From a virus (taxonomy: Duplodnaviria > Heunggongvirae > Uroviricota > Caudoviricetes), in IMG/VR virus record IMGVR_UViG_2711768167_000003, positions 1 to 5,880 of that record: 5,880 bases of DNA. One strand, given 5' to 3'. Below, piece by piece: positions 1,919 through 4,025 of the stretch (the first letter of the stretch is position 1; each line of letters opens with the position of its first letter). The notes below the pieces were generated by a model. The model was not told where the DNA came from, searched no databases, and worked only from the letters and a program-made list of their open reading frames with translations. The translations under genes and the position numbers were made by a program.

Positions 1919-2278
1919 TTATAATCCCACCAAGCTTTCCAGGGGGATTCCAAATTGATTATGAAGACGTCGAATCATTGGTAACGTAAGGCTTCTGGTG
2001 CCATTCAACACCTCGTAAACCCGATTTTTTTTCCCAATTGCGGGCTCCAAATCTTTCACAGTCAGACCCTGCTGTTCCATACGAAATCTTATAGCTTCAA
2101 TTGGGGATGGTGGTTCAATGGGATAATGTTTTTTTTCATATTCCTCTATTAGCAAACACATCACCTCAAAGAAATCCCCCTCAGGCGTGTTAATTTCCGG
2201 TTCATTGTCGAACATGGGCTCAACAGCACGCAACGCTGCTTCATAATCTTGCTCTGTACGAATAGGTTTGATGTTCAT
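1919..2278 (-). CDS. higA: HigA-family antitoxin (type II TA antitoxin with C-terminal XRE HTH), 119 aa
   Basis: ORF in track; C-terminal HTH LTVKDLEPAIGKKNRVYEVLNGTRSLTLPMIRRLHNQFGIPLESL resembles the C-terminal HTH of E. coli HigA as recalled. Lies immediately downstream of the higB-like gene with a 2-nt gap, the toxin-first order typical of higBA. Confidence 0.8.
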   Translation of the reverse strand: MNIKPIRTEQDYEAALRAVEPMFDNEPEINTPEGDFFEVMCLLIEEYEKKHYPIEPPSPIEAIRFRMEQQGLTVKDLEPAIGKKNRVYEVLNGTRSLTLPMIRRLHNQFGIPLESLVGL

Positions 2279-2280
2279 GC

Positions 2281-2583
2281 TTACTCCAGTTCGATGGTAT
2301 CAGCATCAATGGCATCGTATTCCTTGTGGTTTCCAATGAATTTAACAAACACCCATCCTCGCTGATACGCAATTGAAACAATTAAACGGTAATGATTACC
2401 TTTTATGTTGAATACCACGCGCCGGTTTTTCAATATACTGGCCGTTCGGTATTGAGCCTTAATGTCTGCCGGGCTTTTCCAGTCAGCTTTTGCTGTCTCA
2501 TCCACCCATGCCCTTAGCGGTTGTTCTGCATCGGGATTCTTCGCCCAAAAATCCCTGAGTGTTTTAACTGAGATAATCTTCAT
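2281..2583 (-). CDS. higB: HigB-family toxin (RelE/ParE superfamily ribosome-dependent mRNA interferase), 100 aa
   Basis: ORF in track; segment RRVVFNIKGNHYRLIVSIAYQRGWVFVKFIGNHKEYD aligns by eye with the HigB segment HYVFNVGGNELRVVAMVFFESQKCYIREVMTHKEYD, including the HKEYD motif. Toxin-upstream, antitoxin-downstream arrangement. Confidence 0.8.
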   Translation of the reverse strand: MKIISVKTLRDFWAKNPDAEQPLRAWVDETAKADWKSPADIKAQYRTASILKNRRVVFNIKGNHYRLIVSIAYQRGWVFVKFIGNHKEYDAIDADTIELE

Positions 2584-3085: not shown

Positions 3086-3421
3086 TAGCTAACCAACGAA
3101 GCTAAGGTTGGTAATTAAGGAGTTCTCCACGGGTAAGGTGGAGTACGTGCGCCGGACACGGGTGAGCATCCGGCACTGACAGTTTACTGAAAGGATATTT
3201 CCCTGAAAAGTCAGACCATAACGCGAAAGCGCACGGCGAGGTAGCTGGTTCATAGATAGTCTGTCGTTAAATTTTCGTCGACCGTGCGCTTCCGGTTGTG
3301 GCACTCCGCGAAATGGCGCGGCGTAATCATGGCGGGGTACCCTTCCCCTTGAGGACACCGGGTTGTCAGGCTGACCATGCGCCTGAGTGACAACCCCGCT
3401 GCAACGCCCTCTGTTATCAAT

Positions 3422-3474
3422 TTTCTGGTGACGTTTGGCGGTATCAGTTTTACTCCGTGACTGCTCTGCCGCCC
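3422..3474 (+). ncRNA. dicF: DicF small regulatory RNA (Hfq-dependent sRNA that represses ftsZ translation)
   Basis: Sequence TTTCTGGTGACGTTTGGCGGTATCAGTTTTACTCCGTGACTGCTCTGCCGCCC followed by TTTTT matches the DicF sRNA as I recall it (about 53 nt). Sits between ydfC-like and dicB on the same strand, as in Qin. No protein-coding potential in this stretch. Confidence 0.85.
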
Positions 3475-3480
3475 TTTTTA
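3437..3480 (+). terminator. Rho-independent terminator forming the DicF 3' end
   Basis: GC-rich stem GGCGGTA (3437..3443) / TGCCGCC (3467..3473) with an internal CAGT/ACTG sub-stem, followed by T-run TTTTT (3475..3479). Confidence 0.6.
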
Positions 3481-3483
3481 AAG

Positions 3484-3631
3484 TGAATTTTGTGATGTGG
3501 TGAATGCGGCTGAGCGCACGTGGAACAGTTAAAACCAAAAACAGTGTTATGGGTGGATTCTCTGTATCCGGCGTTAATTGTTAACTGGTTAACGTCACCT
3601 GGAGGCACCAGGCACCGCATCACAAAATTCA
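3484..3631. repeat. 14-bp perfect inverted repeat bracketing the dicF-dicB spacer; tandem GTTAAC palindromes inside
   Basis: TGAATTTTGTGATG at 3484..3497 and its exact reverse complement CATCACAAAATTCA at 3618..3631; partial extension GGTG/CACC inward. Internal GTTAAC-tg-GTTAAC at 3580..3593. The right arm ends 5 nt before the dicB RBS (AGGA 3638..3641). Confidence 0.8.
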
Positions 3632-3648
3632 TTGTTTAGGACGCGATA

Positions 3649-3831
3649 ATGGAAACGTTATTACCAAACGTCAATACGTCTGAAGGTTGTTTTGAAATTG
3701 GTGTCAGAATCAGTAACCCTGTATTTACTGAAGATGCCATTAATAAGAGAAAACACGAACGGGAGCTATTAAATCAAATATGCATTGTTTCAATGCTGGC
3801 CCGTTTACGCCTGATGCAAAAAGGACGCTGA
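3649..3831 (+). CDS. dicB: DicB cell-division inhibitor (acts with MinC to block FtsZ ring formation), 60 aa
   Basis: ORF in track; METLLPNVNTSEGCFEIGVRISNPVFTEDAINKRKHERELLNQICIVSMLARLRLMQKGR closely matches E. coli DicB as recalled. AGGA RBS (3638..3641) 7 nt upstream. Immediately downstream of dicF. Confidence 0.88.
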   Translation: METLLPNVNTSEGCFEIGVRISNPVFTEDAINKRKHERELLNQICIVSMLARLRLMQKGR

Positions 3832-3833
3832 CA

Positions 3834-4025
3834 ATGAATACAGCATTTGCACTCGTTCTGACAGTTTTTCTTAATACAGGCGAACCAGTCGATCTTGTTA
3901 TTGGTATACATGACTCAATGAAAGAATGCATGGCTGCCGCAGCGGAACAGAAAATTCCCGGCAACTGTTATCCGGTTGATAAAGTTATTCGCATGGACAA
4001 TAACGAAATCCCGGCTGGTCTTTAA
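3834..4025 (+). CDS. ydfD: YdfD-like DUF1482 small protein (Qin YdfD causes lysis when overexpressed), 63 aa
   Basis: Internal ATG 3834 of track ORF 3780..4025, chosen because AAGGA (3821..3825) lies 8 nt upstream and it starts 2 nt after the dicB stop. MNTAFALVLTVFLNTGEPVDLVIGIHDSMKECMAAAAEQKIPGNCYPVDKVI fits the DUF1482 pattern (hydrophobic FALVL N-terminus, two conserved Cys, GxCYP). Confidence 0.72.
   Translation: MNTAFALVLTVFLNTGEPVDLVIGIHDSMKECMAAAAEQKIPGNCYPVDKVIRMDNNEIPAGL

Follow-up and report, generated by a model that had tools for sequence, protein, structure and literature searches.

DicF and DicB are toxic division inhibitors that are produced from one prophage transcript, and how the two products are separated and dosed is still being worked out. 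According to two later papers that cite Faubladier 1990, a DicF species of 72 nt owes its 3' end to RNase III, which cleaves the full-length mRNA that reads through the terminator, and a review lists the dicF-dicB intergenic region among the substrates of this enzyme. A 2023 study that detected no internal promoter in the operon discussed RNase III cleavage only upstream of DicF, where it concerns a 190-nt species, and not the downstream cut. Other described prophage RNAs include STnc100 and its relative PasD, which are sRNAs of Salmonella and pathogenic E. coli, and KilS (E. coli K-12 b4833), which may have its own promoter according to the paper that named it, a paper that makes no mention of DicF (PMC8175672).

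We analysed a 5,880-nt stretch of viral DNA (hereafter, the window), which is a segment of a Qin-like lambdoid prophage (Table 1). Downstream of a HigB/HigA-like pair, the + strand carries, in this order, ydfC, DicF, a 174-nt spacer, dicB and a DUF1482 (ydfD-like) gene. The HigB/HigA-like pair itself sits between the DicA-like repressor gene and ydfC; such a pair is not known at the matching position of Qin in K-12, and it may be an insertion. DicF scored 76.7 bits against Rfam RF00039 (cut-off 48) at 3423-3474, and window positions 3422-3474 are identical to K-12 dicF b1574 (1649382-1649434; window position = K-12 coordinate - 1645960). The dicB ORF matched PF05358 DicB (E=1.5e-37) and NF049927 (E=2.6e-37). 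Over 3400-3660, the window and E. coli K-12 MG1655 share 98% identity and differ at 3522, 3616, 3637 and 3652. A simple scan of 3250-3900, which missed the DicF terminator too, found no promoter-like or terminator-like site on the + strand. Given that no promoter-like site was found there, dicB would depend on read-through RNA that necessarily contains the helix described below, in line with the 2023 study.

Table 1. Coordinates (window numbering) of genes, RNA helices and signals at the DicF-dicB locus and of neighbouring genes
Feature	Positions	Strand	Remarks
YdaT-like and Cro/YdaS-like proteins		-	
DicA-like HTH repressor		+	
HigB toxin (PF09907, E=8e-33) and HTH antitoxin pair, HigB/HigA-like	1919-2583	-	
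DicF sRNA, 53-nt form with intrinsic terminator hairpin	3422-3474	+	T-run 3475-3479 follows
P1 5' arm	3482-3502	+	Holds the 14-nt arm 3484-3497 and the putative RNase III cut after 3493
Hairpin H1	3505-3508 / 3515-3518	+	MFE; RNAalifold hairpin in slightly different register
Hypervariable middle segment	3519-3569	+	Imperfect hairpin in the window
Hairpin H3, 10 bp	3570-3579 / 3587-3596	+	Carries both GTTAAC hexamers
Hairpin H4, CCUGG-AGGCA-CCAGG	3598-3612	+	Directly abuts the P1 3' arm
P1 3' arm	3613-3633	+	Holds the arm 3618-3631 and the putative partner cut between 3623 and 3624
dicB Shine-Dalgarno (SD) AGGA	3638-3641	+	7 nt before ATG, direct sequence reading
dicB, cell-division inhibitor, 60 aa	3649-3831	+	ORF

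P1 is a very stable, conserved and strand-specific RNA helix

An initial annotation of the window had pointed to a 14-bp perfect inverted repeat around the spacer, with a partial extension and about 120 nt between the arms. All of this was borne out: 3484-3497 (TGAATTTTGTGATG) is the exact reverse complement of 3618-3631, and a repeat search extended the arms to 19 nt (3484-3502 / 3613-3631, 95% complementary, with 110 nt between them). The only mismatch of the extended arms, T3498 / G3617, is a U·G wobble in + strand RNA, and the minimum free energy (MFE) structure appends G3483·U3632 and A3482-U3633, resulting in a 21-bp helix, P1, that includes two G·U pairs. The 14-bp arms enclose about 120 nt, and the 21-bp arms 110 nt. 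The same annotation had listed tandem GTTAAC palindromes within the enclosed segment; both copies are present, at 3580 and 3588, but as the loop and 3' strand of hairpin H3 rather than as an independent feature. None of 300 dinucleotide-preserving shuffles of the whole window contained a perfect inverted repeat of 14 bp at a spacing of up to 300 nt (longest, 8-13 bp), which places the repeat beyond chance.

When positions 3400-3660 were folded, the check that the initial annotation had proposed, the arms paired in both the MFE and the centroid structure (-90.3 kcal/mol, z = -4.2, with none of 200 shuffles as good). They likewise paired in the K-12 sequence (z = -4.9), in which position 3616 is a T instead of the C of the window, changing a G-C pair to G·U. 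In four contexts of 261 to 1171 nt, 20 of the 21 P1 pairs had probabilities of 0.94-1.00 and the terminal pair 0.69-0.80. H1, H3 and H4 all form inside P1 without competing for its arms. Folding is more stable for the + strand than for the - strand (-62.6 versus -50.8 kcal/mol; arm duplex alone, -30.2 versus -25.2 kcal/mol) because the wobble pairs turn into A·C on the - strand. This predicted asymmetry points to a feature of the + strand RNA and not of the DNA.

We searched for homologues using the invariant core of H4 and the start of the 3' arm, and found hundreds of loci in IMG/VR, metagenomes and ten GTDB genomes, the latter including Shigella, E. albertii, E. ruysiae, Citrobacter, Pantoea and Erwinia. 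From these sources, 111 distinct dicF-type spacers were aligned. P1 positions were paired in 94.5% of the cells of this alignment, compared to 35-40% when the partners were slid by 1-3 columns. Both sides had changed at 8 of the 21 pairs, with an observed covariation score that none of 500 shuffles matched, although the homologues are closely related and these compensatory changes represent few independent events. For example, the pair 3498:3617 is C-G in 91, U·G in 15 and U-A in 2 sequences; 3495:3620 is A-U in 95 and G-C, U-A and U·G in 5 each; and 3484:3631 is U-A in 91, C-G in 5 and U·G in 6. When folded individually, all 101 distinct long-arm sequences had at least 20 P1 pairs in their own MFE structures, and a duplex of 20-26 bp was kept in all 35 distinct long-arm haplotypes (dG -24 to -36 kcal/mol). 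RNAalifold recovered only the inner 8 P1 pairs from the 111-sequence alignment because the outer part is interrupted by a bulge column and by the ten sequences with short arms; this outer part was therefore judged by direct pair counts and per-sequence folding. Covariation was also found in H3, at two pairs (GC102/UA6/AU1 and UA97/GC7/GU5). The initial annotation had looked to folding and to covariation across homologues as checks of the repeat; compensatory changes in P1 are present, and neither check spoke against the proposed pairing.

Nearly all copies of the long-arm form lay immediately after a DicF-like terminator and ahead of a division-inhibitor gene, dicB in Qin and kilR in Rac. A DicF-like hairpin lay immediately upstream in 190 of the 202 long-arm loci with enough flank, and the first downstream ORF on the same strand was DicB-like or KilR-like (NF008465, 'FtsZ inhibitor protein') and rarely YdaE-like. 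Further long-arm examples are Rac-SA53 and Stx phage 75/02.

These data also bear on whether the repeat is a feature of the DNA, such as the terminal inverted repeats of a small mobile element, a site of recombination or a site of protein binding, or a chance match. The occurrence of STnc100-like modules in many phage contexts, sometimes as tandem arrays, would suit a DNA-level origin, as would the boundary between dicB-type and kilR-type leaders, which lies just past the 3' arm. However, pairing is kept via G·U and U·G, neither of which would match in DNA or on the opposite strand; insertions and deletions fall inside the element and not at its ends; and the genes on both sides, as described above, are nearly constant. 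An origin at the DNA level or by chance, which we consider highly improbable, is effectively excluded by the shuffle test, by the asymmetry of the strands and by covariation that preserves the wobble pairs. P1 is a very stable, conserved and strand-specific RNA helix of 21 bp, and it is formed only in read-through transcripts.

Probable RNase III processing and the dicB leader

The initial annotation had regarded the stem as a plausible RNase III substrate, and published data agree with this idea. With a length of 72 nt, as quoted by two later papers, the 3' end of DicF maps to 3493 (3422 + 71), in the 5' arm of P1, with 12 bp of the helix below it and 9 bp above. The RNase III site of Faubladier 1990 would probably be this helix: the operon and the intergenic region are the same, and site and helix are matched through the 72-nt length that the two later papers quote. 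In addition, a delta-rnc RNA-seq table (PMC5371410) contains K-12 position 1649470, flagged as known, with 26 reads in delta-rnc and 0/0 in the wild type. This position corresponds to 3510 in the window, inside the enclosed segment; the counts are very low, and the dicF-dicB row is one of many comparable low-count rows, including kilR-sieB and ydfB, which makes this weak evidence.

The dimensions of P1 are also consistent with known properties of RNase III substrates. Intramolecular substrates of double cleavage have a helix of about two turns (~22 bp), and P1 has 21 bp, with 20-26 bp in homologues. In vivo, both positions that separate the staggered cuts are base-paired, in most cases with a G-C pair among them. 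From the rule of a 2-nt 3' overhang, the partner of the cut after 3493 would fall between 3623 and 3624; with cuts at these predicted positions, the pairs between them would be G3492-C3623 and U3493-A3622, in agreement with the in vivo rule.

We consider it probable that P1 is an RNase III substrate whose cleavage trims read-through RNA, with predicted staggered cuts after 3493 and 3623. The RNase III dependence and the 72-nt product are taken from the literature, and the helix, its stability, strand specificity, conservation, covariation and position from the present analysis. In the proposed mechanism, read-through of the DicF terminator would allow 3482-3502 to pair with 3613-3633, and P1 would then close a four-hairpin STnc100-related domain and, at about two helical turns, would be long enough for double-strand cleavage. 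A cut after 3493 would trim the read-through RNA to the 72-nt DicF, cuts after both 3493 and 3623 would excise a folded spacer of ~130 nt, and the cut after 3623 would give rise to a dicB mRNA starting about 25 nt before the AUG. Cleavage may uncouple or alter the expression of dicB (and kilR); the initial annotation had likewise envisaged a possible coupling of DicF processing to dicB translation. The RNase III reading is essentially a rediscovery of the processing site reported in 1990 and is mostly already known; what P1 adds is a physical basis for the cut downstream of DicF, with predicted ends at 3493 and 3624 (K-12 1649453 and 1649584).

A second long, imperfect stem was observed upstream of DicF, at ~3216-3240 / 3276-3301 (core arms 3224-3236 / 3282-3294). 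The start of the RNase III-dependent 190-nt DicF species (2023 preprint) maps to ~3285, in the 3' arm of this stem, so that RNase III-type helices appear to flank DicF on both sides.

As the initial annotation had noted, the stem stops just short of the dicB ribosome-binding site: P1 ends at 3633, 4-6 nt upstream of the SD, which starts at 3638. Such a stable stem so close to the SD might act uncleaved, as a translational or stability element of dicB that hinders 30S binding or protects the 5' end, an explanation that we regard as unlikely. The SD is outside P1 in the window. Most homologues have a weak extension of P1 into the SD: in the commonest dicB leaders (TTGAGG, including that of K-12; TTGAGGAC), five weak pairs follow a 1-nt bulge (3477-3481 / 3634-3639), giving 25-26 pairs in total and reaching A3638 and G3639 of the SD. 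In contrast, the window has a T at 3637 instead of G, and the extension is weakened or lost. The dicB AUG (3649-3651) is itself predicted to lie in a 7-bp hairpin (3645-3651 / 3656-3662, GAUAAUG-GAAA-CGUUAUU; probability 0.8-0.99 in every context), which would fit an uncleaved element as well. However, kilR-type leaders retain the long helix, yet have the SD further downstream, and the predicted accessibility of the SD does not clearly change, or improve, after the putative cut.

In the lambda N leader, translation is limited by a stem that adjoins the SD and is sensitive to RNase III, which offers a precedent for an uncleaved P1 that controls dicB. The two stems are alike in that both are long, RNase III-sensitive (putatively so for P1), located in a lambdoid early operon and placed just upstream of the SD of the downstream gene. 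The likeness is one of arrangement between unrelated sequences and does not imply an effect of cleavage on dicB translation. Cleavage of P1 by RNase III remains our preferred explanation.

The 5' region of DicF (3416-3430, AATTTTCTGGTG) resembles the 5' arm (3486-3497, AATTTTGTGATG; 83% over 12 nt), and the 3' arm (3618-3632) is 80% complementary to the start of DicF, which may be due to chance. Judging from this complementarity, DicF could pair with the dicB leader via the 3' arm.

The enclosed domain and its kinship with STnc100

P1 closes a multi-hairpin domain of roughly 150 nt, which is distantly similar to STnc100. The spacer (3476-3669) matched Rfam STnc100 RF02076 over the whole model (positions 1-206) with 37.2 bits and E=1.5e-5, which is below the gathering cut-off of 47 bits. 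Scores were 28-44 bits for dicF-type and kilR-type copies and 52-132 bits for canonical copies. The order of helices is common to both: a closing helix, H1, a variable hairpin, H3 and H4. The closing helix, H3 and H4 align with the model, so that the consensus architecture and the conserved core are both found in the spacer; in the STnc100 register, H1 has two non-canonical pairs in the window. Spacer and STnc100 also share GGUGAAU after the 5' arm and the 22-nt core UCACCNGGAGGCACCNGGCACC, which was found in more than 120 viral contigs, and both STnc100/PasD and the spacer occur in lambdoid prophages.

Several differences were observed as well. H4 is invariant within the dicF-type set but differs from the canonical CCGGG...CCCGG by a double change from G-C to U-A at its third pair. 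The closing helix has 21 bp in the spacer compared to 6-8 bp in canonical STnc100: among 64 distinct canonical copies it was ~6-8 bp long, with pairing at background level beyond 8 bp, and P1-like phages P7 and D6 likewise have the core with a short closing helix. The canonical helix covaries too, for example with A-U in 31, G-C in 20 and G·U in 6 copies at one position; being covarying and only 6-8 bp long, it suggests that the 21-bp P1 is a lengthened version of an ancestral closing helix. Finally, STnc100 genes stand alone and have a promoter and a terminator of their own, whereas the spacer forms part of an operon, where it separates the DicF terminator from the dicB SD, and is not a free-standing sRNA gene. 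By sequence and model comparison, the spacer may be described as a diverged STnc100-class domain with a lengthened closing helix, which is a modest new point of annotation.

The middle segment of the domain is hypervariable. At alignment columns ~57-118, 57 distinct versions of 25-61 nt were found among the 111 distinct homologues, and the flanks, CAGTTAAAA ... CCGGCGTTAATTGTTAAC, are nearly invariant. Such a segment resembles a cassette replacement or a specificity region.

Canonical STnc100 copies were observed in varied contexts. Six IMG/VR contigs have tandem arrays of 2-6 adjoining phage tRNA genes, and loci with the 22-nt core that score 52-132 bits often form arrays of 3-5 copies at such genes. 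The C1-controlled ban operon of phages P7 (72453-72568) and D6 has a copy with tRNA genes on one side and terB on the other. In some cases a TTGACA-17-TAAATT promoter directly precedes the copy, and transcription from it would start at the closing helix. Nearly all listed phage records have no feature under the STnc100 match, and two show a hypothetical protein.

Other identities were also considered for the element and its arms. The put antiterminator RNA of HK022 came into question in view of the STnc100 copies that lie immediately behind a promoter; put is ~70 nt long and has two stem-loops. A tRNA-like element was dismissed after ARAGORN found none in the window, and the arms were dismissed as an intrinsic terminator or internal promoter after the simple scan found no such + strand site in 3250-3900.

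The kinship with STnc100 raises the possibility that the main role of P1 is to close an autonomous STnc100/PasD-class RNA, folding and insulating its domain, with the RNase III cut being a release step or a side reaction. We consider this explanation possible but not the favoured one, and it is compatible with the RNase III explanation. It is consistent with the end-to-end match and similar helix order, with the 22-nt core that the spacer has in common with copies scoring 52-132 bits, and with covariation both of H3 and of the closing helix of canonical copies. The hypervariable middle between invariant flanks is what would be expected of a specificity or seed region, and PasD is an Hfq-bound sRNA that has been seen on Northern blots. 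On the other hand, the score is below the cut-off, no promoter or terminator of its own was found for the spacer in 3250-3900, and we found no established function of STnc100 in the literature. The absence of wild-type reads at K-12 1649470, compared to 26 in delta-rnc, suggests, at these very low counts, that an excised piece does not accumulate.

A bolder proposal, which we regard as speculative, is that the ~130-nt piece which RNase III would excise (about 3494-3623) is itself a functional, diverged STnc100/PasD-class RNA with a hypervariable central hairpin, either a trans-acting sRNA or a cis-acting gate on the toxic division inhibitor, and that it forms the third part of a conserved DicF/KilS-RNA-dicB/kilR module in which lengthening of the helix recruited RNase III. 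If this is true, lambdoid prophages carry a three-part module composed of an ftsZ-targeting sRNA (DicF/KilS), a structured RNA and an FtsZ-inhibitor gene (dicB/kilR), and lineage-specific growth of the closing helix from ~8 to ~21 bp drew in RNase III to separate the three products.

Distribution of the spacer and comparison with the Rac prophage

The spacer (3476-3641) is widespread in E. coli: it was detected in 4642 of 5426 complete genomes (86%). The copy number per genome has a median of 2 and a maximum of 9, and 144 of the places are on plasmids. Among the 30 records listed, no feature is annotated under the spacer match, with the exception of one partial match under a hypothetical protein.

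The K-12 Rac prophage (NC_000913.3 1418229-1418502, - strand) contains a closely similar arrangement of KilS, a long-stem spacer and kilR. The annotated sRNA KilS (PMC8175672) is a DicF paralogue (Rfam DicF, 39 bits) and ends at a T-run, as in the layout of DicF. The unannotated spacer between KilS and kilR matched STnc100 with 28 bits (E=0.0012); in its 3' arm, one A is bulged and one pair is G·U. In both prophages the downstream gene encodes an FtsZ inhibitor, kilR in Rac and dicB in the window. On the basis of these sequence similarities, DicF-dicB of Qin and KilS-kilR of Rac are probably best viewed as one module, a modest new point of annotation; among the records listed, its gain is a widespread and essentially unannotated spacer that links the Qin and Rac loci.
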